Assembly: GCA_963664015.2 (NCBI GenBank) | Contig: CAXXLF010000002.1 | Span: 608,001 to 672,000, forward strand | Origin: Candidatus Binatia bacterium | Lineage (GTDB): Bacteria; Desulfobacterota; Binatia; UBA9968; CAXXLF01 | Length of the DNA stretch: 64,000 nucleotides | Direction: 5' to 3' | In this document: positions 7,975 through 56,373 of the stretch, one piece after another | Position numbering within the stretch: position 1 is the first letter of the stretch | How the letters are laid out: each line of letters starts with the position of its first letter | Translations under genes and position numbers: made by a program | Notes under the pieces: generated by a model | What the model was told of the DNA's origin: nothing | Databases searched by the model: none | Seen by the model: only the letters and a program-made list of their open reading frames with translations

Positions 7975-9321
7975 TTGAGCGTGTCCACGAAAGAGAAAGC
8001 CCTCTCCATTGTTACGCGCCTACACGAGGAGGGGTATCTTGCCTATCTGGCCGGCGGCTGCGTACGGGACGGTCTTCTGGGTAAAGAACCCAAAGACTAC
8101 GACATCGCCACAGACGCGGAGCCGGAGCAGATCCAACACATCTTTCCTCAGACCCTTGCGGTAGGCTCTCAATTCGGCGTGGTTATGGTGATCCTGGATA
8201 GAGAGTCCTTTGCCGTAACCACTTTCCGCTTCGACGGGCCTTATCTGGACGGACGACACCCCAGTCATGTGCGCTTCGGCACCTTGGAAGAAGACGTGGC
8301 ACGACGGGACTTCACCATCAACGGAATGATGCTCGACCCGGAAGACAATCGGGTCATCGACCTCATTGGCGGTCAGATGGACCTGAAGCAAAGGGTAATC
8401 CGCGCCATCGGAGATCCCAACCAACGCTTCGAAGAGGACCGGCTTCGCATGATTCGCGCCATTCGTTTCGCGGCCGGTCTTAATTTCACCATCGAGGAGA
8501 AGACCCATGCCGCCGTACGGCAACAGGCATCAAAGATCACTCAAGTCGCATGGGAACGGATTGGCGACGAGACAACACGGGTGCTGACGGAAGGCGGGGC
8601 CAAGAGGGGCTTCGAGCTCATGAACGAGACCGGCCTGCTCAAAGTCTTGATGCCCGAAATCGAGAACATGAAGGGAGTCGAGCAGAGCCCCAACTATCAC
8701 CCCGAGGGAGATGTATTTTCCCATACAATGAATCTTCTCGGCCATCTGGACAATGCAACCGAAACCCTGGCCTACGGCTGCCTGCTCCACGACGTGGCCA
8801 AGCCCGTATGCTTCAAACGACGAGAGCATAAGATCACCTTCTACAACCACCCCAATAAGGGCGCCGAGATGGCCGTGGAGATGTTGAAACGCTTCAAGCG
8901 CAGCCGGAGCACTTGGGAACGTGTCGAGTACCTGGTGCGCAGTCACCTGCACTACACCCAGGCGCCCAATATGAAACTCAGCACCCTAAAGAAATTCCTC
9001 GGCGGAAACGGCATCGGAGAGCTATTGGAGCTATGCCGCATTGATGCCCTGTCATCCAACGATGACCTGCAGTATTACAATTTTTGCAGACAGAAGTTAT
9101 CAGAATTGAAGAGCGAAGAGATCCATCCTGAACCACTACTTCGCGGAAAGGATCTTATTGCCATGGGGTTTTCGCCCGGCCCCATCTTTCAGACTATCTT
9201 GAAGCAACTCGAAGAAGGCCAGCTCAACGGCGAGGTTCTCAGCCGAGAACAAGCACGGGAATGGGTCATCAAGCAATACGGAGTCCAGACAACACCCCCT
9301 CGTCAACCGGAGAAAGAATAA
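7975..9321 (+). CDS. cca: CCA tRNA nucleotidyltransferase with HD domain
   Basis: GGCVRD-LLG-EPKDYDIAT, RRDFTIN, EDRLRMIRAIRF, HPEGDV, LLHDVAKP. Confidence 0.9.
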   Translation: MSVSTKEKALSIVTRLHEEGYLAYLAGGCVRDGLLGKEPKDYDIATDAEPEQIQHIFPQTLAVGSQFGVVMVILDRESFAVTTFRFDGPYLDGRHPSHVRFGTLEEDVARRDFTINGMMLDPEDNRVIDLIGGQMDLKQRVIRAIGDPNQRFEEDRLRMIRAIRFAAGLNFTIEEKTHAAVRQQASKITQVAWERIGDETTRVLTEGGAKRGFELMNETGLLKVLMPEIENMKGVEQSPNYHPEGDVFSHTMNLLGHLDNATETLAYGCLLHDVAKPVCFKRREHKITFYNHPNKGAEMAVEMLKRFKRSRSTWERVEYLVRSHLHYTQAPNMKLSTLKKFLGGNGIGELLELCRIDALSSNDDLQYYNFCRQKLSELKSEEIHPEPLLRGKDLIAMGFSPGPIFQTILKQLEEGQLNGEVLSREQAREWVIKQYGVQTTPPRQPEKE

Positions 9322-11871: not shown

Positions 11872-12117
11872 CGTCTTCCTTGCTACTGCAAACAAGTGGC
11901 TCTGTCTTTGTCGATTTACTCGATCCAATCCCAATTCTGAATTCCGCCCCGTTATATTAGCAAGATGGATTCTTTACCAATCGGTGTTTTAGGCCTCAGT
12001 TAAGATAGGCGTTTTTGAATACGCTGAAGAAGCGTTTGCTCAGCATAGTTCGACGTGAACGAGTCATTAGACCAAGTTAGGCGAATGTTAGCGCTGCCCC
12101 AAGGGATTGTAAAGAAA

Positions 12118-12138
12118 TTTTTTCAGCAAGTGGTCTAG
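12118..12138. repeat. Degenerate MITE/IS-like terminal motif (TTTTTCAGCA...CTAG)
   Basis: Similar to 12617-12635 and 54961-54979. Confidence 0.4.
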
Positions 12139-12182
12139 CGCAGACAGGATCGTAGATGGTAAACCCCGGTGCTCCTCCGCCG

Positions 12183-12545
12183 TCACTCGTCGCGGTGCAC
12201 GGCCTCCAGGGAAAAGGCCGGATGACACACGGCGATGTATTCGGCACCATCGGGGCCCGGGGTACTGTACTGAACCCATTCGCCGCGGGGCACGAGAAGC
12301 GCCGAGCCCGCCTTGATTTCAAGGAAGCCGTTTTCAGTTTTGATATGCAGCTCGCCCCGAATAACGACAGTGTATTCGTCGAATTCGGGACGCTGCCCCG
12401 GCTCGACCCATCCGCTGGGACTTTTCATTCGGGCAATGCTCAGCGCATCGGTCTTGGAGTTGACCCTTCCCACGTACTCTTCGATCACCTTGGGCTTATT
12501 GCCCGCGGAGGAAATAATGGACGGTTTATCAATCACAATAGGCAT
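12183..12545 (-). CDS. Cupin-domain protein (EutQ-like)
   Basis: GNKPKVIEEYVGRVN, SPSGWVEPGQRPEFDEY, GEWVQYSTP, PAFS. Confidence 0.85.
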   Translation of the reverse strand: MPIVIDKPSIISSAGNKPKVIEEYVGRVNSKTDALSIARMKSPSGWVEPGQRPEFDEYTVVIRGELHIKTENGFLEIKAGSALLVPRGEWVQYSTPGPDGAEYIAVCHPAFSLEAVHRDE

Positions 12546-37583: not shown

Positions 37584-39293
37584 TCACTGGGTTCCGACCG
37601 GCTTACTGCTGAAGTACTCGGCAATCGCCTGGATCAGCCCCGTCACCGTATACTCCTTGGCCACCACATCGACCCTCATTCCGTTCTCCTCTGCCGTTTT
37701 CCGAGTGATGGGACCGATACAGGCCACAGCAACGCCATTTAGAAGTTTTTTTCTATCTTTTTTGGGCAACGAGTCGAGAAAATGCTTCACCGAGCTGGAG
37801 CTGGTGAAAGTTACCATGTCGATCATCTTTTCATCCAGCGTTTCTCTGAGCCATGTGGCATTGCCCTTGACGGGAACCGTCCGGTAGGCCTGAACTACAT
37901 CGACCTCCGCCCCCCATTCGCGTAACGTTCTGGGCAAAACGTCACGTGCCACAGCCGCCCGGGGTAGAAGTAACTTCTTTCCCCGAACCTCTTCAGGTTT
38001 GACTCCATGCAATAGCCCCTCGGCTCGATACTCGGCAGGGATGAGTTCGACCTTTAACCCTTCGGAGGAAATCCTCTTGGCCGTCTCGGGACCTATGGCC
38101 GCTAATCGAATACCATCTAGATGCTCGACACTCCGGCCAAGATGCCTCAGACGATTCATAAATTCTCTTACGCTGTTGACACTGGTAAACACGATCCAGT
38201 CGTACTCCTTGATGCCCTCGATGGTCTTGTCCATCGGCACATAGCTTTCCGGCGGAACGATCTGGATAGTGGGGAACTCGATGACTTGAGAGCCAAGGGC
38301 CTCGACTCCGCGGACTAAGGGGCCCGCCTGGTCCCGCGGCCGGGTAATCATAATGCGTCGCCCGGACAGGGGCAGGAACCGGCCATTGAGCAGTTTGTCC
38401 GCTCCCGCCTGAAGCAACCGCCGCGCCAGACTTTCTCCCAACTCCTCCGCCTCCTCAGCCGCACCGGAAAGCTCATCTCTCAGTACCTGCTTTCCCTCGG
38501 TGTCGGCAACGATCCCGATGAGTCTCACATTGCCCTTCTCCGCATAGGCCAGTGCCCCAACGGGCACCTGACATCCTCCCCCGAGAGCCCTGAGAAAGGC
38601 CCGTTCGGCCAGGACCTCGGTAGCCGAAGGTTGGTGATGAAGAAACGCTATTTCCCCTACGATCGGACTTCCCACACATGTCTGCAAACCCAGAGCCCCT
38701 TGAGCCGCCGCGCTCACACAGATTTCGGGGGGGAGGAACTCATTGATCCGTTTCTCCTGCCCGATCCGTCTGAGCCCCGCTGCGGCCATGATCAGAGCGT
38801 CGAACTCGCCGTCGTCCAACTTCTTGAGCCTGGTATCCACGTTGCCGCGGACAGGAACGACTTCGAGGTCGGGACGGTGGTGGAGGATCTGACTCTGCCG
38901 CCGCAGGCTCCCGGTTCCGATACGCGAACCGGAAGGCAGATCCTTCAGGGCCACTCCGTCGCGGCTAACCAGCACGTCACGGGGGTCCTCACGCTGGGGC
39001 ACGGCAGCAATGGTGAGCCCGTCGGGTATCTCTGTGGGTAAGTCCTTCATGGAATGTACTGCGAGCTCAATATTCCCTTGGAGCAGGGCGTCCTCGATCT
39101 CTTTGACGAAGATCCCCTTTCCTCCGATAACTTGCAGGGGGCTGGAGAGAAACCGGTCGCCGCTGGTCTTGACCACAACCGTCTCGACTCGACACCCGGG
39201 TAAGTGTTTTACCAATTCGCCCTTGACCCAGTGGGCCTGAGCCAAAGCCAGGGCGCTTCCCCGCGTACCGATTCGAATGTTCCTCGTAGCCAT
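37584..39293 (-). CDS. hemC: Fused hydroxymethylbilane synthase / uroporphyrinogen-III synthase
   Basis: [36 protein letters not shown]; then HemD domain ITRP, FTSVN, IGPET, FTSSS. Confidence 0.95.
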
Positions 39294-42335: not shown

Positions 42336-43770
42336 ATGGTCTTTCTCTTTCTACGGCACTGACAAGTTCATCAAACCAGCAAAGCTCATCCCTCAAGAGG
42401 ACCACCGCTCCGATAACCGCGAGAACCGGCGTCTTTATCCCTATAGACCGCTCACAAATACTGCCCAGAGTGCCCGTGACGGTTTCCTGCTCGTGGGTCG
42501 TTCCCGAACGAATCAAGGCAATGGGCGTTTCCGGACCTCGGCCATGGCCCAGGAGTTGGGCCACAATGTGGGGCAGATTACTGAGTCCCATGACAATGAC
42601 GAGCGTATCCACGGCTGACGCCAAGCCCGACCAATTGATCGACGGTTCACTTTTAATGGCCTCGTGTCCCGTGATCACTGCAAAGGATGAAGAGACCCCT
42701 CTGTAGGTCAGTGGAATACCAGCATATGCAGGAACGGCCACGACCGAAGTGACGCCCGGCACGATCTCGAAAGGAATGCCGGCCTTTGCTAATGCCAGGG
42801 CTTCTTCACCACCGCGCCCAAAGACGAAGGGATCCCCCCCCTTGAGACGGACCACCCGGTTCCCCAAACGAGCCTGGGAAATGAGAACGCGGTTGATCTC
42901 TTCTTGAGGAAGCAGGTGGTGCCCCGCTTCTTTGCCGACAAAAATAATTGTCGCTACGCTGCGACACCGCTGGATGAAATCGGGGTTAACCAGGCGGTCG
43001 TAAACGACCACATCCGCATTACTCAACAGCTCCCGGGCCCGCACCGTCATGAGATCCGGATGGCCCGGCCCTGCACCGACGAGGTAAACCATGCCCAATG
43101 CCGGCTTAACCAAACGCTCCCCTTTCTCCTGTCCTTCCGACTGATAGCTCTGCCTCAGTTGTTTACGGAGTAGGATTTTTGCCTCACCATGCTTTCCCTC
43201 CCGGATCAGGCGGCGCATGTCGCCCTTCAAGGCCTTGCCCCAGGCCGCGGCACTAGGCACGGGTAAGTCGTTGCTTAGCTCCTGACGCACCTCAGCCGCA
43301 ATACGCGTGATGTCGGCGTACTCACGGCCGATCGTCTCCTCGAGCTCTTCCCTGACTACCTTGGAAAACGCAGGGCTTTTCCCTCCGGATCCCACGGCAA
43401 CCGTCAGATCACCCCGCTTGAGAACCGACGGGACAATGAAATCGCAATGGCGAGGATCATCCGCCACATTGACCCATACACCCAGCTTTCGTCCTTCCTC
43501 GGCGACGGATTCATTGACACGCTCGTCACCAATGGCAACAAAGGCAACCTCATACCCTGCCAGGTCACCCGACCGATAACCGCGCGCCTCGTATCGGATC
43601 TTCCCCTCGTTAAGCCACAACCGAAGCTGTTCCGTAATGTCGGGACTGATAACGGACACGCTCGCACCCGCATCAAGGAGGCTTTCCACCTTGCGCTCAG
43701 CGACGGCACCCCCTCCAAGCACCAGGCAAGGGCGTTTCGACATATCGAGAAAGACCGGATAGTATCCCAT
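42304..43770 (-). CDS. cysG: Siroheme synthase (dehydrogenase/chelatase + SUMT)
   Basis: GGGAVAERK, NVADDP..CDF, GKSP; LVGAGPG, RLKGGDPFVFGRGGEE. Confidence 0.95.
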   Translation of the reverse strand: MGYYPVFLDMSKRPCLVLGGGAVAERKVESLLDAGASVSVISPDITEQLRLWLNEGKIRYEARGYRSGDLAGYEVAFVAIGDERVNESVAEEGRKLGVWVNVADDPRHCDFIVPSVLKRGDLTVAVGSGGKSPAFSKVVREELEETIGREYADITRIAAEVRQELSNDLPVPSAAAWGKALKGDMRRLIREGKHGEAKILLRKQLRQSYQSEGQEKGERLVKPALGMVYLVGAGPGHPDLMTVRARELLSNADVVVYDRLVNPDFIQRCRSVATIIFVGKEAGHHLLPQEEINRVLISQARLGNRVVRLKGGDPFVFGRGGEEALALAKAGIPFEIVPGVTSVVAVPAYAGIPLTYRGVSSSFAVITGHEAIKSEPSINWSGLASAVDTLVIVMGLSNLPHIVAQLLGHGRGPETPIALIRSGTTHEQETVTGTLGSICERSIGIKTPVLAVIGAVVLLRDELCWFDELVSAVERERPFDGDRSQIQP

Positions 43771-47451: not shown

Positions 47452-49725
47452 TCAGGGAGTCGACTGAGCGCCCATGAGGCGTCCATAGCAACTATGGGCG
47501 GCGTCAATGAACAACTGTGCCTCTTCTATTCGTTGATGGGCCAGGTCTTGGGTCGTCTTTCCGTTACCTCCATTTTTCTTCAACGATTCGTCGGCCATAA
47601 AAAGAAAATCCGCAAACTTGCTACCGGCATACTTATCATGGAACACCTTGGTATCGTAAAAACGCGCGCGAAATTCGGCGAGGATCGTCTCCGGATCGTC
47701 TGGGATATCCGCATATTGGGTCTTGATGAGCCCCTGGGCCGCGTGCAGCATGGAGCGATACGCCGTCTGTACTGCCTTTCCGAAATCACAGTTGTCGAGC
47801 ATTATCTGTGACTCGAATAGCTCGCGCTCGCTGCCTGCAAGGGTAAACTGTGCCTGGGAAACGACCTCTCCCGCGCATTCGCCGATTCCCATGTCTTTGA
47901 GCGTGAACTCCCGCGGATCGCCCCAATCGCTGTAATAGGAGGGGTCCACGTCATGGGAAGGGACACGGGTCAGGTCTTCCAACAGACGCTTGACCTCCAG
48001 CTTGCCGATCCTGCTGATGAAGTCCTGAAAGCTCTCCCCCTTCTCCCGCTCCCGAACAAAACGCTCGGTAACCCGTGTAACCACATCCGGTACGCGCTTG
48101 GAAGGAATCGCCCCAACGGCAAGCCCATAGGAGCCCCCATTGTCTTTCCATTTGCCGCCAAGAACCACTTGAAAATGAGGCACCGTATAGGAACCGATAT
48201 TCCGGCTGATTCCATAGAAACCGATGTCGGCCACATGATGCTGGCCACAGGAATTGAAGCAGCCACTGATTTTGATTCGCAGCCCCTTGACCGCCTCGTC
48301 AAGCTCGAGGCTCTTTTCGCCCAACCGGGTGCGCAACTCTTTGGCTAGCCCCCTGGAAGAAGCAATGCCCAACTTACAGGTATCGGTGCCCGGGCAAGCC
48401 GTCACGTCCACAATCGTTCCAGCATTGGGCTGTCCTAGTCCGATCTGGCAAAGGGCCGAATAGAGCTCGTGAAGATCGGATTCGGTGATCCAACGGAAGA
48501 TGATATTCTGTTCTACTGTCGTGCGAATGGTGTCCTTTACAAAACGACGGGCAATGGATGCGAGGCCACGAAACTGGTCGGCGGAAAGATCCCCTAAAGG
48601 CAGAGTCACAGTGGCTACGACATAACCCGCCTGACTCTGATGATAAACATTGGTCGCAGTCCACGCCTCGAACCCATCCGGAGGTGTGGCTCCATTCATG
48701 GTCACACCTTTTTTCAAAGGCTCTTCCGTCGGCTCGTTGACCGTGGCAAGAAAGTCCGTCCAACGGGGATCCGGTGTCAATTTGCCGCGCTCCTCCAGGA
48801 CGAGCTTGCGGAACTCCTCGATTCCAAGCTTAGTCACCAGGAACTTCACCCGGGCACGGGCCCGGTTACGCTTTTCGCCCAGGCGGGCAAAAACCCGAGC
48901 CATCGCTTGCGCGACGGGCAATAGCTCCTCTTCCGGCAGGAACTCATCAAAGAGCTTGGCCTGATGGGGAACAGCACCCAATCCTCCGCCAACATAAAAC
49001 TCGAAGCCGCGGCGTTCCGTACCACCGACGACTTTCGTCTTAGCGATTGCCCCCATATCATGCATGCTGGTAAGGCCGCACGCCTCCCCTTTACAACCGG
49101 AGAAGGCGATCTTGAATTTCCTGCCAAAGTCCTGCGTATCGGGATGGCCCAGCAAGAAGTTGGAGCAAGCCACCGCATAGGGAGTCACATCGAAGACCTC
49201 ACTATTGCAAACTCCCGCGATCGGACAAGCAGTAACGTTGCGAACGACGTTACCGCAAGCCTCCCGGGTAGTGATACCAACGGCAGCAAGGCGGCGCATA
49301 ATCGTCGGCGTGTCGTCAATATGAATAAAATGGAACTGAAAGTCCTGACGGGTCGTCACGTGAGAAACCCCATCCGAATACTCCTCGGAAAGGTCTGCCA
49401 GAACCTCCATTTGCTCCGGATTAAGACCCCCAAAAGGAATCTTGATACGCATCATACCCGGCGCGTCCCACACGGTTTCGGGGCCCTTGGTCAATCCATT
49501 GGATGGAAGTTTTAATTGCTGTGTCCTTGTTCCGTCGTTCCTCTGGCCGTTATCGTAGCGCTGCCCGTAAACACCCCGGCGCAACCGAGTCTCTGCAAAG
49601 ACCTTCTCCTCGATCTTTCCTTGCTTGCGAAGCTCGATTTGGGTCTCAAAGATATCGATCTCACGGGCCAATTCCTGCGGCATCCGATCGGCAAGCTTTT
49701 CTTTCCAGCTCAGAAGATTACCCAT
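47452..49725 (-). CDS. sir: Siroheme nitrite/sulfite reductase with C-terminal extension
   Basis: RLRRGVYGQR, TTRQ, RNVTACP, RKFKIAFSGC, ACPGTDTC, SGCFNSCG. Confidence 0.92.
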   Translation of the reverse strand: MGNLLSWKEKLADRMPQELAREIDIFETQIELRKQGKIEEKVFAETRLRRGVYGQRYDNGQRNDGTRTQQLKLPSNGLTKGPETVWDAPGMMRIKIPFGGLNPEQMEVLADLSEEYSDGVSHVTTRQDFQFHFIHIDDTPTIMRRLAAVGITTREACGNVVRNVTACPIAGVCNSEVFDVTPYAVACSNFLLGHPDTQDFGRKFKIAFSGCKGEACGLTSMHDMGAIAKTKVVGGTERRGFEFYVGGGLGAVPHQAKLFDEFLPEEELLPVAQAMARVFARLGEKRNRARARVKFLVTKLGIEEFRKLVLEERGKLTPDPRWTDFLATVNEPTEEPLKKGVTMNGATPPDGFEAWTATNVYHQSQAGYVVATVTLPLGDLSADQFRGLASIARRFVKDTIRTTVEQNIIFRWITESDLHELYSALCQIGLGQPNAGTIVDVTACPGTDTCKLGIASSRGLAKELRTRLGEKSLELDEAVKGLRIKISGCFNSCGQHHVADIGFYGISRNIGSYTVPHFQVVLGGKWKDNGGSYGLAVGAIPSKRVPDVVTRVTERFVREREKGESFQDFISRIGKLEVKRLLEDLTRVPSHDVDPSYYSDWGDPREFTLKDMGIGECAGEVVSQAQFTLAGSERELFESQIMLDNCDFGKAVQTAYRSMLHAAQGLIKTQYADIPDDPETILAEFRARFYDTKVFHDKYAGSKFADFLFMADESLKKNGGNGKTTQDLAHQRIEEAQLFIDAAHSCYGRLMGAQSTP

Positions 49726-51250: not shown

Positions 51251-51499
51251 GGTAGAGACAGGAGGAAAACTTAATAAAATCATAATAACCAGTCCACCAT
51301 TTTGGGTCAAGCCAAGAGAGACATTCAAAAGTCTTTCTCAAACTATTCGCATCTAGCACAAAAATCAAACCATGGCTTTTTCGATCCTCCTTCACGATCG
51401 AAAAAGCGATTGACTGGAAAGCCCCATCTCCCAGTGCGGCATTGCCTATTGCACTGCGAGATGGTAGAAGAGGCAAAATCATTTGCGAGGTAACCGGCA

Positions 51500-52060
51500 A
51501 TGGAACTTTACTCAGCTACCACCTGACCGTTTGCGCACAGGACTAGGATTGTCCTCGCCGAAAAGCAGTTACCTTACAAACTCATCGAAATCGACCTCAA
51601 ACGTAAACCCAAGGCCCTTTGGCAGAAGAACCCATACGGTAAGGTCCCCGTACTCATAGACGGGGATACGGTCGTTTACGAATCTGCTATCATCAACCAA
51701 TACCTTGAGGAACGGTACCCCCAAAGCCCTCTGATGCCTAAGGACCCCGCTCAAAGAGCCAGGGCAAGGATCTGGATCGACTTCTGCAATTCCCGCCTCC
51801 AACAGGCCGCCAGTGACTTTCGTCACAACAGGGAACCGGAGAAGGCGCAAAAAAGATTGGATAAAGACCTGCACACCTTGGACCAGGAGATGAGCCACCG
51901 AGAGTATATCGCCGGTGCTTATTCACTGGGTGATATCACCTACACCCCTTTTTTCTTGCGCCAGAAACAATATAAAATCTCCATCGGCGACGACATGCCG
52001 CATTTAAAAGCATGGATGAGCCGCATCATGGACCGGCCCGCCGTACGTTCTACTTTGTAA
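51500..52060 (+). CDS. Glutathione S-transferase, probable selenoprotein (in-frame TGA read as Sec)
   Basis: GAGG RBS, ATG 51500: MELYSATT(TGA)PFAHRTRIVLAEK...NPYGKVPVL...ESAIINQYLEE, in frame with ORF 51734-52060; the TGA sits at the CPF/CPY Cys position. Confidence 0.85.
51533..51558 (+). promoter_or_regulatory. Candidate bacterial SECIS hairpin
   Basis: AGGAC (51539-43) pairs with GTCCT (51551-55), loop UAGGAUU; GCG/CGC lower stem; upper stem starts 13 nt after the UGA. Confidence 0.6.
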
Positions 52061-52517
52061 CCGTTGCCCCCGCCAGGGGGGTAAATGTACCGAGACGCCA
52101 CGCTTCAGTCCCCCAATCGACCCCCTCAATTTCGGGACCGAAACAGTACGGGTCCTCTCAGTCTAATTAAGAACACTACACACCTTATTTAACAGGAACG
52201 TGCAATGGGTGGGGGAACAGTCGGATCAGGAACCACTGATGCAACCAGAAGATCGCTTGACTCAACATGGTTGATAAAAAACGGTTACGATTAATGTCAA
52301 TCCGGATCCACACGCCAATTAGGACAAGCCCGGTAGGGATTTACCGGTCTGTTCTTTGCGAGATTTGGAACATCTATGCCCCTTTTCTGAGTTGTTCATC
52401 ACAAAATCGGAATTGGATGGCGCGTTTTAGACTAGGGCTGGCAACGGGAGCAATCGCGTTGGAATAGCGACGTATTGGGAGTGTGCTAAGGGAATTGACG
52501 CAGGAACAATGGGAGGA

Positions 52518-53951
52518 TCACGATTTTCCGAAAGGATTCGAGCGGGAAGGTAATGGGGGCGCACCGGTGGGTAGGAATTCCTCAAGGCGGACGGTATCCC
52601 CTCCCATAGGGCTCAGGCGTTCGAATTCAAGACGCTTTGCAGGATCGCACTCCGGCGGTTTGGTGGCATCGATCATGACCTTACCTCCGATTCGGTGCCA
52701 CCCAGGACTTCCCGGCGTTCCCACCTGGCGGCACGATGGGTCCATAGCGTGAATCTTAGTACCGGAAATCACGGTGATATCCTCTTCTGGATCGACCCGG
52801 GTCGAGATTGCCCACAACACGTCGGCGTAATTGAAGATGTCCACGTCCTCATCGACGGCGATGGCGACTTTGGGGTGCTGGTACTCTCCGGAAAGGGCCG
52901 CCATAAGCACGTTTTTTACCTCGCCGTAATACCGCGGGGTCATCTGGATCACAACACCGAATATGCCCGGTAGCACAAGCACGTTCTTGATGTTGGCAAA
53001 GCCCCCAACGGTCCGGATGCGGCGCAAGATCTGTCCCGACATGGGGACCTTATGGTACACGCAGCCCTCGACTTCGGCCCCGTTTTGAATGTTCTTAAAG
53101 ATGGCGTCGTTACGCATCGTAACCGCGTTGATCTTGAGTACCGGGTTTTTACCGGAACCGGCGAGGTAGTAGTCCTGGAACTCGCTAAATGGGCCTTCCT
53201 CTTCCCGCACGTTGGGTAGGATCTCCCCCTCGATAACAATCTCAGCATTGGCTGGCACTTCGAGATCCACCGTCTCGCACTTGACCAATTCAACGTCCTC
53301 CTGAAGGAGGGCTGAGGCCAATTCCAATTCATCCACCCCATAATCCGTCGTGGTGGCCGCGGCAAAGTAGTACATCGGGTGATGTCCCACCATGATCGCC
53401 ACTGGCATGGGCTTATTCTCCTTTTCGTACTGTTGGAAATTCATCCAGTTATGCCTTGGGTATAAAAGCACCCCGGTCTTTCTAGGCCCCTTTAACTGTA
53501 GCCGGTGAAAGCTCATGTTTCTCGCACCCGTGATCGGGTTTTTGGAAATCATCAATCCGGAGGCAATGAAGGGCCCTCCGTCTCTCTTCCCCGCCTGATG
53601 GATTGGCATCTTGCTGATGTCGACGTCATCGCCCAGCATGATTTTCTCTTTGACCGGGCCCGTATTGACCATGCGCAGAGTACCCGGTTGGGAAATCCGT
53701 CGCACGAATTCGGGAACCATTTCGTCTCTATGACAATCAAAGGCCAATGGTGCCATCTCTACGTTACCCGGAGCCTGGCCTAGACATCGCCAACCGGGAA
53801 ATCCGGTCAGATTATCGAAATACAGGGCACGAGCCCGTGCCTGCCACAACAAGGCTCCCATCTGCGTTCGGGGGTCCACTGGCTTGCTGATCTGCGCCAA
53901 AACACCCGCCGTTTCCAATTGATCAATCCACGTTCGCATATCTTTTGCCAT
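52518..53951 (-). CDS. UbiD family prFMN-dependent (de)carboxylase
   Basis: DGGPFI, SFHR, VPANAEIVIEG, EGPFSEF, VDEDVD, WAISTR, IDATKP. Confidence 0.92.
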   Translation of the reverse strand: MAKDMRTWIDQLETAGVLAQISKPVDPRTQMGALLWQARARALYFDNLTGFPGWRCLGQAPGNVEMAPLAFDCHRDEMVPEFVRRISQPGTLRMVNTGPVKEKIMLGDDVDISKMPIHQAGKRDGGPFIASGLMISKNPITGARNMSFHRLQLKGPRKTGVLLYPRHNWMNFQQYEKENKPMPVAIMVGHHPMYYFAAATTTDYGVDELELASALLQEDVELVKCETVDLEVPANAEIVIEGEILPNVREEEGPFSEFQDYYLAGSGKNPVLKINAVTMRNDAIFKNIQNGAEVEGCVYHKVPMSGQILRRIRTVGGFANIKNVLVLPGIFGVVIQMTPRYYGEVKNVLMAALSGEYQHPKVAIAVDEDVDIFNYADVLWAISTRVDPEEDITVISGTKIHAMDPSCRQVGTPGSPGWHRIGGKVMIDATKPPECDPAKRLEFERLSPMGGDTVRLEEFLPTGAPPLPSRSNPFGKS

Positions 53952-54098: not shown

Positions 54099-54719
54099 TC
54101 AACCTCTAAACCCGGTCATATACGGGAGTTTATAGGCCACTTCCTTTACCTTTCCCAAATTGCCTCGCAACAGCGATGTCGAATCCCACGCCCCGGTCGT
54201 CAGGGCATTACGATGGGTTTCTGGTAGATCTATTGAAATCTCCTTCCCATTGTAGGACAGGATTTTGGATCGGAGATCAACGGTAAAAGAAGTGTCCGAG
54301 GCGCTTTCCACAGTTTGCATCAACTCACCAATCGCCTCTGGGGAAACCATGACCGTAGGAATCCCCAGCATGATACAATTCCCCGCAAATATGGCGGCGA
54401 AGGACTCACCGACGATGGCGTGAATCCCAAAGCGAAGAATGGCCTGTGGGGCGTGCTCACGGGATGATCCACAGCCGAAGTTTTTGTTGACGAACAGGAA
54501 CGAGGCCCCTTTGTACTTTTCATCGTTGAAAGGGTGGCTTTTGGGGGTTCCCGATGCATCGAACCTCTCATCGTAGAAGGGATATTCGCCCATTCGCTCA
54601 AAGGTCACCTCTTTTAAATAGCGCGCCGGCAAAATACGATCCGTATCTATATCATTGCCGCGTACAGGAAGGGCAGTTCCGCTGATGCGGGTTACTTTGG
54701 GGTCACTTATGGCACTCAT
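54099..54719 (-). CDS. leuD: 3-isopropylmalate dehydratase small subunit
   Basis: DIDTDRILPARYL, NFGCGSSREHAPQA, SFAAIF. Confidence 0.93.
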   Translation of the reverse strand: MSAISDPKVTRISGTALPVRGNDIDTDRILPARYLKEVTFERMGEYPFYDERFDASGTPKSHPFNDEKYKGASFLFVNKNFGCGSSREHAPQAILRFGIHAIVGESFAAIFAGNCIMLGIPTVMVSPEAIGELMQTVESASDTSFTVDLRSKILSYNGKEISIDLPETHRNALTTGAWDSTSLLRGNLGKVKEVAYKLPYMTGFRG

Positions 54720-54740
54720 CTAACGCCTCCTTACGCCTCC

Positions 54741-54979
54741 CAACAGGCTACTTAAAAGACACTCAAATGCTAACAGCCTGCTTCAAGCCGGCGATTTCAA
54801 AAGTTGCGGTTGATCGGCCGGGGAATTCTTCCGCTCAGAGCAAAATCACTCCAATGTACCGCTTAAGTACGCCGACCCTCATCAATTTTTGGCACGCCGT
54901 TCGGCTGAGCTAGGTCGAGACCTCGCCTCTGAGATCTTTTTGACCAGCCTGCATCCTGATTTTTTCAAAATCCTGCTAG
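54741..54979. mobile_element. Degenerate MITE-like element(s) between leuC and leuD
   Basis: CAGGCTACTTAAAAG at left; TTTTTGACCAGCCTG and TTTTTCAAAATCCTGCTAG at right; internal GTAC-N7-GTAC; CTAG overlaps the leuC stop. Confidence 0.55.
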
Positions 54980-56373
54980 TTGTATTGCCGCACGTCCACT
55001 ACCTTGCCGTTCAAAGCGGCGGCAACGACCATGGCCGGGCTCATGAGCAGGGTGCGCCCGCCCGGACTTCCCTGCCTACCAATGAAGTTACGGTTCGACG
55101 ACGAAGCACAGATTTCTCTTCCGTTCAATTTATCGGGATTCATGGCAAGGCACATGGAGCATCCGGCTTCCCTCCAATCAAATCCCGCATCTCGAAAGAT
55201 TCGATCCAGCCCTTCTTTTTCGGCCATGGACTTGACCTCTGCAGAGCCCGGCACCACCAGTGCCCGGACATCCGAGTGGACCCTCTTACCGGCAGCAACC
55301 TTCGCAGCGATGCGCAGGTCGCTGAGCCGCGAGTTGGTACAGGAACCGACAAAGGCCACATTAATAGGCGTCCCCATTATGGGGCTTCCAGGCTGCCACC
55401 CCATATGTTTGTAGGCGAGTTTGGCCCCCTCTGGATCGGAGAAATTCTCGGCTAAGGGAAGCTTTTCAAATATGCCTACCGCCTGTCCCGGGTTAATTCC
55501 CCAGGTGACTGTGGGCTCTATCTGCGCACCCTCAACATCAACGACGTCGTCGTATCGGGCATTGCCATCGGAAGTCACCGACTGCCAGTAAACGACGGCC
55601 TTTTCGAATTCGGCGCCCTTGGGGACATACTTTTTGTCTTTCAAGAACTGAAAAGTTGTCAAGTCCGGATTGACATAACCGATCAGGGCACCTCCCTCAA
55701 TGCTCATATTACAGAGAGTCATACGCTCTTCCATATTCATCTTCTCGATGACCGGACCGCCGTACTCGTACGCAAACCCCTTTCCTCCCCCAACCCCCAG
55801 TGTACGGATTATGTAGAGGATCACGTCTTTGGCATAAACCCCTTGGGCCAGACCGCCATTGACGTTGATTCTGCGCACTTTTAGTTCATCCATGGCGAGG
55901 GTCTGCGTCGCAAGCACATCACGGACCTGGCTCGTGCCTATGCCAAAGGCGAGGGTCCCGAAGGCCCCGTGGGTACTGGTGTGGCTATCACCACACGCCA
56001 ACGTCATCCCCGGTTGGGTTAACCCCAACTGGGGCCCGATCACATGGACAATCCCCTGATTTTCGCTATCCAGTCCAAATAATTCGATTCCAAACTGACC
56101 TGTGTTTTTTTCCAGCGTTTGCGTCAATTCCTCGGCTTGGGAATCCTGGAACGGGCGAGAACGGTTATCCGTGGGAACAATGTGGTCGACGGTAGCAAAG
56201 GTCCTCTCGGGAAAGGCAATATCCAATCCCTTTTCACGTAACATGTCGAAGGCGGGTGCCGTCGTAATTTCATGGATTAGATGGAGTCCGATAAAGATCT
56301 GGGTTTGACCGGTGGGGAGCTTGTCCACCGTGTGGGAGTCCCAAATTTTATTATACAAAGTGTGCTTTGCCAC
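54976..56373 (-). CDS. leuC: 3-isopropylmalate dehydratase large subunit
   Basis: [47 protein letters not shown]. Confidence 0.96.

Follow-up and report, generated by a model that had tools for sequence, protein, structure and literature searches.

Selenoproteins with the fold of a glutathione S-transferase (GST) have been known since 2005, when a GST family of 4 sequences, assigned to COG0625, was listed in the analysis of the Sargasso Sea (PMC1088965). The GST row in a table of the 2008 Global Ocean Sampling (GOS) analysis gives the figures 12, 8 and 1,036, read here as sequences with selenocysteine (Sec), a second count and homologs with cysteine (Cys) (PMC2398784), and a 2026 review lists a 'GST-like protein, PF13409' and describes the functions of such proteins as largely uncharacterized (PMC13188914). 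As they appear in these tables and lists, the published proteins share a GST fold (COG0625 or PF13409), one TGA-encoded Sec and a downstream bacterial Sec insertion sequence (SECIS), and they are known from sequence only, with no biochemistry. The gene examined in this study lies at positions 51500-52060 of the window (the whole 64-kb stretch of DNA that was analysed, positions 608001-672000 of contig C2 in genome G000, which comprises 3.5 Mb in two contigs and is rated 97% complete); it encodes both the N- and the C-terminal GST domain, as matched by Pfam, and has a single in-frame TGA. In the published marine set, which has few members, Sec is the rare form; in the family of this gene it is the rule (87 of 88 distinct coding sequences and 79 of 80 metagenome loci, compared with the published counts by table rows only), and the family is near-universal in one order. 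Very probably, 51500-52060 holds a monocistronic and intact gene whose product is a GST-fold selenoprotein of 186 residues; a hairpin would direct Sec insertion, and catalysis would resemble that of Cys-type GSTs. An earlier examination of the window (hereafter the sequence-only reading) had proposed a seleno-GST with the motif UPFA and had noted that Sec-containing GST homologs are reported from environmental sequences; the latter is correct for the three sources above, and the former is supported by the conservation of the TGA, the Sec machinery of the genome, the frozen synonymous sites of the hairpin and the alignment of the TGA with a CPF motif.

The gene comprises the following features.

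51487-51490, + strand: Shine-Dalgarno-like GAGG, 9 nt before ATG 51500
51500-52060, + strand: complete coding sequence (CDS) of the predicted GST-like selenoprotein, 186 residues and a TAA stop
51506-51730, + strand: N-terminal thioredoxin-like GST domain, residues 3-77 (Pfam GST_N_3, 1.4e-23), with conserved K48-V49-P50 and E61-S62
51524-51526, + strand: in-frame TGA, codon 9, read as Sec in a U-P-F motif
51538-51556, + strand: putative SECIS hairpin within codons 13-19 (HRTRIVL), from its fold and from synonymous-site conservation in relatives
51827-52039, + strand: C-terminal helical GST domain, residues 110-180 (Pfam GST_C, 9.8e-11)
52058-52060, + strand: TAA stop of the GST frame

Translation through the TGA gives 186 residues, MELYSATT-U-PFAHRTRIVLAEK..., with no second stop in frame, and the gene structure is an intact frame with one TGA. 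The opening of the frame at ATG 51500 behind a ribosome-binding site, its 186 codons and the TGA as its sole interruption, all described in the sequence-only reading, are seen in the sequence. As had also been reported, the listing of open reading frames (ORFs), in which an ORF starts at the first ATG, GTG or TTG past a stop, shows just the 108-aa tail at 51734-52060; because the tail starts there, none of these three codons occurs in the GST frame between the TGA and 51734. A purine-rich stretch resembling GGAG or GAGG is found 5' of the start in many, not all, of 30 orthologous loci. The window protein retains all 55 columns that are invariant in a 12-sequence alignment (A1), in which K48-V49-P50 and E61-S62 are likewise invariant; these two motifs presumably contact glutathione, as the cis-Pro and the Glu-Ser pair do in GSTs. 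Directly past the TAA, at 52061-52090, lies a G+C-rich inverted repeat (CCCCCGCC / GGGGGG region) without a T run, for which the terminator scan was negative, and the scan for promoters and terminators around the gene gave background level only. Because the hairpin is unremarkable when taken alone, the window by itself cannot tell a selenoprotein from a nonsense mutation.

Relatives were sampled in 40 genomes of a single order, in which they represent 3 families and 10 genera. All but two of these genomes (38 of 40) carry an ortholog that has exactly one TGA (49-66% identity; the exceptions are G018 and G025), and in each of the 30 loci that were fetched the TGA is codon 9, after an M-[KR]-L-[YFL]-S start and before P-[FY]-A-H-R-T-R. 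A scan with one genome per species found 577 relatives, and the best 80 of the 577 comprised 79 loci with TGA and 1 with TGT. Pooling the first 30 loci with these best 80 gave 110 loci and 88 distinct CDS, with TGA in 87 and TGT in 1, and even when the Cys-form protein P0003 was the query of a scan of metagenomes, 79 of 80 loci had TGA and 1 had TGT. Most of the relatives come from metagenome-assembled genomes (MAGs) whose records bear the title 'Candidatus Binatia bacterium' or 'Deltaproteobacteria bacterium'. The TGA is therefore conserved in all three sets of fetched loci and is not unique to the strain, which is what the sequence-only reading had said would have to be looked for in homologs. 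Coding constraint is present on both sides of the TGA in the orthologs: Leu3, 5' of the TGA, is invariant yet spelled by all six Leu codons, which indicates that the first eight codons are translated in the GST frame. At the TGA, the window agrees with contigs from three sequencing runs. Those of two runs, X1 and X4, are identical or nearly identical to it over the entire stretch and may be the source of its DNA; only the third, a 146-nt contig over the TGA from X6, a seawater metagenome of another study, is clearly separate. Five of the relatives (G029, G019, G013, G033 and G014) have two TGA-form copies each.

In the window, the arms of the hairpin are AGGAC (51539-51543) and GTCCT (51551-51555), the loop is TAGGATT (51544-51550) with GG at 51546-51547, and the stem begins at the 13th nt past the TGA, with 12 nt in between. 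The hairpin thus stands where the sequence-only reading had placed it, with a G-containing loop as described, while the bulged U which that reading had considered possible is unsupported, as the fold has a plain 5-bp stem in the window and 8 bp in most relatives. According to the legend of Fig. 2 in PMC13188914, the bacterial SECIS (bSECIS) model allows a loop of 3-9 nt, a stem of 4-16 bp, a spacing of 16-37 nt and a minimum free energy of at most -7.5, and as criterion (ii) has a G within the first two loop positions. With a 5-bp stem, a 7-nt loop, a 17-nt spacing and -13.0 kcal/mol over 63 nt, the window copy is within the numerical limits of that legend. The family resembles the model, as far as the legend describes it, in having the hairpin just 3' of the UGA and the loop 17-19 nt from it (16-37 allowed), and most orthologs have an 8-bp stem and a loop GG[A/C], in which G comes first and is followed by G.

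The significance of the hairpin comes from the comparison with relatives rather than from the window alone. In most relatives, a stem of 8 bp begins 11 nt past the TGA and closes on the 3-nt loop GG[A/C], with a core of about -10 kcal/mol. Columns 21 and 27 are paired in 60 of 66 distinct ortholog segments (59 A-U, 1 U-A), and inside the 22-26 pair, which is invariant, this leaves a loop of 3 nt that starts with GG. Across orthologs, 97.7% of stem cells are paired, and double changes convert C-G to U-A at the outer pair and A-U to U-A beside the loop. Among the 87 Sec-form sequences, the most common codon at each hairpin position accounts for nearly all cases (CAC 0.93, AGG 0.99, ACA 0.91, AGG 1.00, GTC 1.00 and CTG 0.91). 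The mean top-codon fraction is 0.96 for these six hairpin codons, compared to 0.58 for 52 other conserved degenerate codons, and all six outrank all 52 (Mann-Whitney p 3.6e-5, n=87 sequences); the test compares codons inside the same sequences, so kinship affects both sides alike. Arg14 and Arg16 are spelled AGG in 173 of 174 cases, while in the remainder of these genes only 77 of 1160 Arg codons are AGG. Synonymous sites are thus frozen in all 87 Sec forms, whereas the sole Cys variant no longer has the hairpin (see below); the lack of hairpin conservation that would have spoken against the sequence-only reading is not observed. These patterns support a hairpin that is selected as RNA and tied to the TGA codon.

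The TGT variant provides a natural control. The sole Cys form, L078 (its CDS is identical to that of L116), keeps the residues HRTRIVL and spells them CAC AGA ACA CGA ATC GTC CTG. Its hairpin is gone, with a core fold of only -2.3 kcal/mol, and L076, the Sec form closest to it (93% identical as protein), differs from it at 5 of the 21 nucleotides of the hairpin, compared to 13% divergence overall. The Cys form nests within Sec forms: in the marked sets of 4 and 6 rows, all other rows are Sec forms (SH-aLRT branch supports 97 and 100). This tree was built by a quick method, was rooted with two Ser-type paralogs from the genome of the window and holds 66 of 151 distinct proteins, the rest having been dropped by subsampling. 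The pattern points to a recent change from Sec to Cys that would have been followed by loss of the RNA constraint. The genome that carries L078, the only Cys-form copy, also has a Sec-form copy, L070, on another contig of the same MAG record set.

The genome of the window carries a full set of genes for Sec, as the sequence-only reading had considered necessary, with selA, selB, selD and tRNA-Sec all in the same genome.

C2:1306765-1307862: selA (match 1.6e-156)
Just downstream of selA: selB (wing domain in a 648-aa frame)
C2:1311134-1312057: selD (match 1.5e-111), with one in-frame TGA in the motif KAAG-U-AAK
C2:1322535-1322629: tRNA-SeC(tca)

The genes selA, selB and selD are clustered (L003, G000:C2:1309634-1313557), and the tRNA-Sec lies about 10 kb further on. 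TGA is otherwise an ordinary stop that ends 6 of the 9 long ORFs around the GST gene. Of 20 matches to the AhpC-TSA family in the genome, 11 have an in-frame TGA (10 with one, one with two), and at several of these sites the TGA stands in a U-x-x-C or T-U-x-P-F context with a hairpin 11-14 nt downstream and a loop of (A)GG(U) or AGUU. Ten of the 11 AhpC-TSA matches with TGA are located as follows, and the eleventh is on contig C1.

Contig C1: 855686-856063
Contig C1: 255118-255504
Contig C1: 1071952-1072326
Contig C1: 940192-940638
Contig C2: 1218197-1218538
Contig C2: 322616-323068
Contig C2: 1193985-1194380
Contig C2: 1090539-1090832
Contig C2: 587757-588155
Contig C2: 1919639-1919968

The organism probably has an unusually large selenoproteome of thiol oxidoreductases. 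Glutathione synthesis is also encoded, with gshB above the cut-off and a GCS2-type ligase present. Among the relatives, selA was found in 38 of 40, and its co-occurrence with the TGA form is uninformative as nearly all genomes have both.

By sequence, the nearest solved structures are the SspA-like proteins 6v91, 4qq7 and 4hoj (E about 1e-33), followed by human GSTO1 (E 6e-27), and in each structure alignment the TGA aligns with the Cys of C-P-F (residue 32 of GSTO1 by the printed numbering). The sequence-only reading had described a Cys at this position in omega-class and SspA-like GSTs, and the alignments place it there. The alignment with GSTO1 (PDB 1eem) spans residues 2-184 of the window protein, with the TGA on the Cys of CPFA and with A-x-R-T-R-[IL]-V-L after the Cys common to both. 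GSTO1 differs in being a 241-residue chain with Cys, whereas the window protein is bacterial and has 186 residues and Sec. Omega-class GSTs are extended by about 20 residues at the N-terminus, and in GSTO1 the alignment does not begin until residue 25. The window protein, in which just 8 residues precede the Sec, has no such extension. Cys32 of GSTO1, at the start of helix 1, is assumed here to be the catalytic residue that forms a mixed disulfide with glutathione. The SspA-like or RegF proteins of Burkholderia and Neisseria type (6v91, 4qq7 and 4hoj) share the start M-x-LYS-x-TT-CPF, with Cys rather than Sec at the TGA position, and the window protein is about 20 residues shorter. In three GST paralogs examined in the same genome (C1:75363, C1:1006107 and C2:377763), the aligned residue is Ser, not Cys. 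Their codon use could not serve as a control, and two were used solely as outgroups.

The bacterial Sec pathway suggests how the protein would be made, and the alignment together with the chemistry of omega-class GSTs suggests how it would act. Translation would start at ATG 51500, and the hairpin at 51538-51556, inside the following codons (HRTRIVL), would recruit SelB with Sec-tRNA(Sec) at UGA 51524-51526, where, by analogy with the bacterial Sec pathway, Sec would be inserted in place of termination. The Sec would occupy the position of the CPF Cys of omega-class and SspA-like GSTs. Its selenolate would attack a glutathionylated or disulfide substrate to give an Se-S mixed intermediate with glutathione, which a second glutathione would resolve, and the resulting chemistry would be of the thiol-transferase, deglutathionylase or reductase type and not conjugation. 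Most likely, the mechanism is that of Cys-type GSTs, with a selenolate as the nucleophile; thiol-transferase or deglutathionylase activity, as the sequence-only reading had proposed, we infer from this analogy. Selenium insertion, SelB binding, the substrate and the reaction are in this sense predictions from the known pathway and from related enzymes.

There are several potential alternatives to a catalytic selenoprotein. The one that survives best, and that is still improbable, is that the Sec protein acts as an SspA-like regulator associated with RNA polymerase, possibly sensing redox state, rather than as an enzyme. The best structure matches are indeed of the SspA/RegF type (1.3e-42 with a profile), and SspA is the top NCBIfam match. 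However, the score against the SspA equivalog NF007016 (NCBIfam) is 109.3 bits and does not reach the cut-off of 314, so by the NCBI model the window protein is not SspA. The P-H-P of SspA homologs, which we take to be a motif needed for binding RNA polymerase, is replaced by P-Q-S in the window and by P-Q-x in the family consensus, where no residue reaches 50% at the third place. In addition, neither flanking gene matches the SspB family in Pfam, a result of general Pfam matching, as no search aimed at SspB was made, and the retention of a costly Sec would argue for catalysis.

Considerably less probable still is a functional gene in which the UGA is not read as Sec, either because a near-cognate tRNA (Trp or Cys) decodes it or because translation stops after 8 residues and a fragment is initiated downstream. 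It is true that public gene callers start downstream and give products of 108-177 aa. However, a re-initiated product, with no start before 51734, would lose the whole N-terminal domain including the conserved VP and ES, while plain read-through would leave unexplained the synonymous freeze that is seen only with TGA. The position is also the Cys site of Cys-type GSTs, and the genome has a Sec system and many other genes with in-frame TGA at Cys-type positions. The least probable alternative, a pseudogene in which a Cys-type GST was killed by a single mutation from TGC or TGT to TGA, could draw on the fact that this is one step, on a window hairpin that is weak and not significant alone and on the long branch of the window protein, but it is extremely unlikely given that codon 9 is TGA in nearly all relatives, including some with only about 52% protein identity (87 of 88 distinct CDS, 79 of 80 metagenome loci), and given the lack of any further stop or frameshift, the retention of all 55 invariant A1 columns, the Sec machinery in the genome and the protein-level constraint on Leu3.

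It is also important to note the observations that weigh against a selenoprotein at this locus, several of which concern the window copy of the hairpin. This copy is the poorest of the ortholog set. Its 63-nt fold of -13.0 kcal/mol has a z of -1.05, and 31 of 200 shuffles fold equally well or better; its 25-nt core has -7.3 kcal/mol, compared to about -10 in relatives and just above the -7.5 limit of the bSECIS model. A T for A at 51544, common to the other four sequences of the window's family, creates a U-U mismatch near the loop, and a C for G at 51556 makes the outer pair (51538/51556) C-C, where most relatives have C-G. The U-U mismatch leaves a predicted loop of 7 nt (UAGGAUU) in which no G comes before position 3, and with this loop the window copy would fall outside criterion (ii) as worded in the figure legend. 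In a strict bSECIS-like scan behind the TGAs of the 64-kb window, the GST hairpin was not picked up, because the continuous-stem rule forbids the U-U mismatch, and when 51400-51700 was compared with Rfam at E up to 10, the only matches were three at chance level, none of them to a SECIS family. The weakness of this copy, like the long branch and the two missing selA matches described below, does not outweigh the Sec machinery, the conserved TGA and the constraint on the hairpin in relatives, but Sec insertion in this organism may be less efficient. As a gauge of background, the same strict scan found five read-through frames, none with a Pfam match and all with low-complexity translations, which we take as chance occurrences.

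38743-39237, + strand: bSECIS-like read-through frame
54265-54573, + strand: bSECIS-like read-through frame
43217-43576, + strand: bSECIS-like read-through frame
12080-12436, - strand: bSECIS-like read-through frame
8376-8693, - strand: bSECIS-like read-through frame

The remaining adverse points come from the relatives and from expression data. Covariation is weak (double changes in 2 pairs, 3 cells) because the stem barely varies, and the argument for the hairpin was therefore rested on synonymous-site conservation. The Cys control is a single lineage and one event, L078 and L116 having the same CDS, and not a statistic. The end branch of the window protein on the tree is long (0.51). A good selA match is missing in two TGA-form relatives, G021 (none) and G005 (weak, 5.4e-4), whose GST loci are among those fetched (L013 and L016); both are many-contig assemblies, G005 being rated 100% complete in 240 contigs, and the gap is either an assembly gap or something odd. 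Finally, a 211-nt seawater metatranscriptome contig covers only 51729-51939, with 6 differences that indicate a related strain, and ends short of the TGA; as this lone contig from an RNA library may be DNA carry-over, it is no proof of expression.

The Sec-GST type itself is not new, as the 2005 record makes clear. What is new, judged from the present comparison, is that Sec predominates in a lineage, with the gene in 38 of the 40 sampled genomes of the window's order, that a constant set of codons contains the putative SECIS and that an apparent Cys revertant shows decay of the SECIS. A literature search on Binatota and selenocysteine, and on GST-like, omega and Sec-containing proteins, found no record of a Sec-GST of this lineage, although supplements may list such proteins. 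It is possible, though on balance doubtful, that these genes form a distinct omega/SspA-like GST lineage in which Sec is ancestral and near-obligatory across an uncultured order and in which reversion to Cys is rare and followed by SECIS decay. If true, this would be the first GST lineage made up predominantly of selenoenzymes, its reaction would be one that Cys serves poorly, such as a peroxidase-like or a fast deglutathionylating activity, and the lineage would appear as part of an unusually large selenoproteome of thiol oxidoreductases in these bacteria.

Ordinary gene callers cut the gene short because its active-site residue is encoded by TGA. Of the best 120 matches in protein collections, 119 lack the N-terminus: they are fragments of 108-177 aa that start past codon 9 and span 58-94% of the query. 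The Cys form P0003 is the only full-length protein among the 120. The cluster members listed are mostly 91-168 aa, with four of at least 186 aa, and most of those with names are called 'glutathione S-transferase'. As the relatives are called as N-terminally short fragments, the active site of the whole protein family is missing from databases. The Sec form and the recent Cys revertant, at 93% identity, make a natural pair for asking what selenium gives a GST-fold enzyme, and the compact SECIS (8-bp stem and GGN loop in the codons for HRTR[IL]VL) suits the study of SelB recognition outside model organisms. In addition, a genome that appears rich in selenoproteins is of interest for the ecology of an uncultured lineage with regard to redox and trace elements.

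The gene neighbourhood gives no functional clue. The GST gene stands alone between a divergent SLT/LysM transglycosylase gene upstream and a convergent gene for a UbiD-family decarboxylase downstream. A search of 109 loci (L007-L115) for a conserved neighbour found only the SLT gene kept, and only in one neighbouring genus, where 4 matching loci correspond to 2 distinct places. In the strain sampled by run X6 (seawater DNA), the gene differs at 5 synonymous and 4 non-synonymous sites, which is not enough to support a test. Other genes close by, at 47452-49725, 52518-53951 and 54099-56373 (all on the - strand), encode a NIR_SIR nitrite/sulfite reductase, the UbiD-family decarboxylase and the large and small subunits of an aconitase-family enzyme; these ORFs are intact, and four of them end in TGA.

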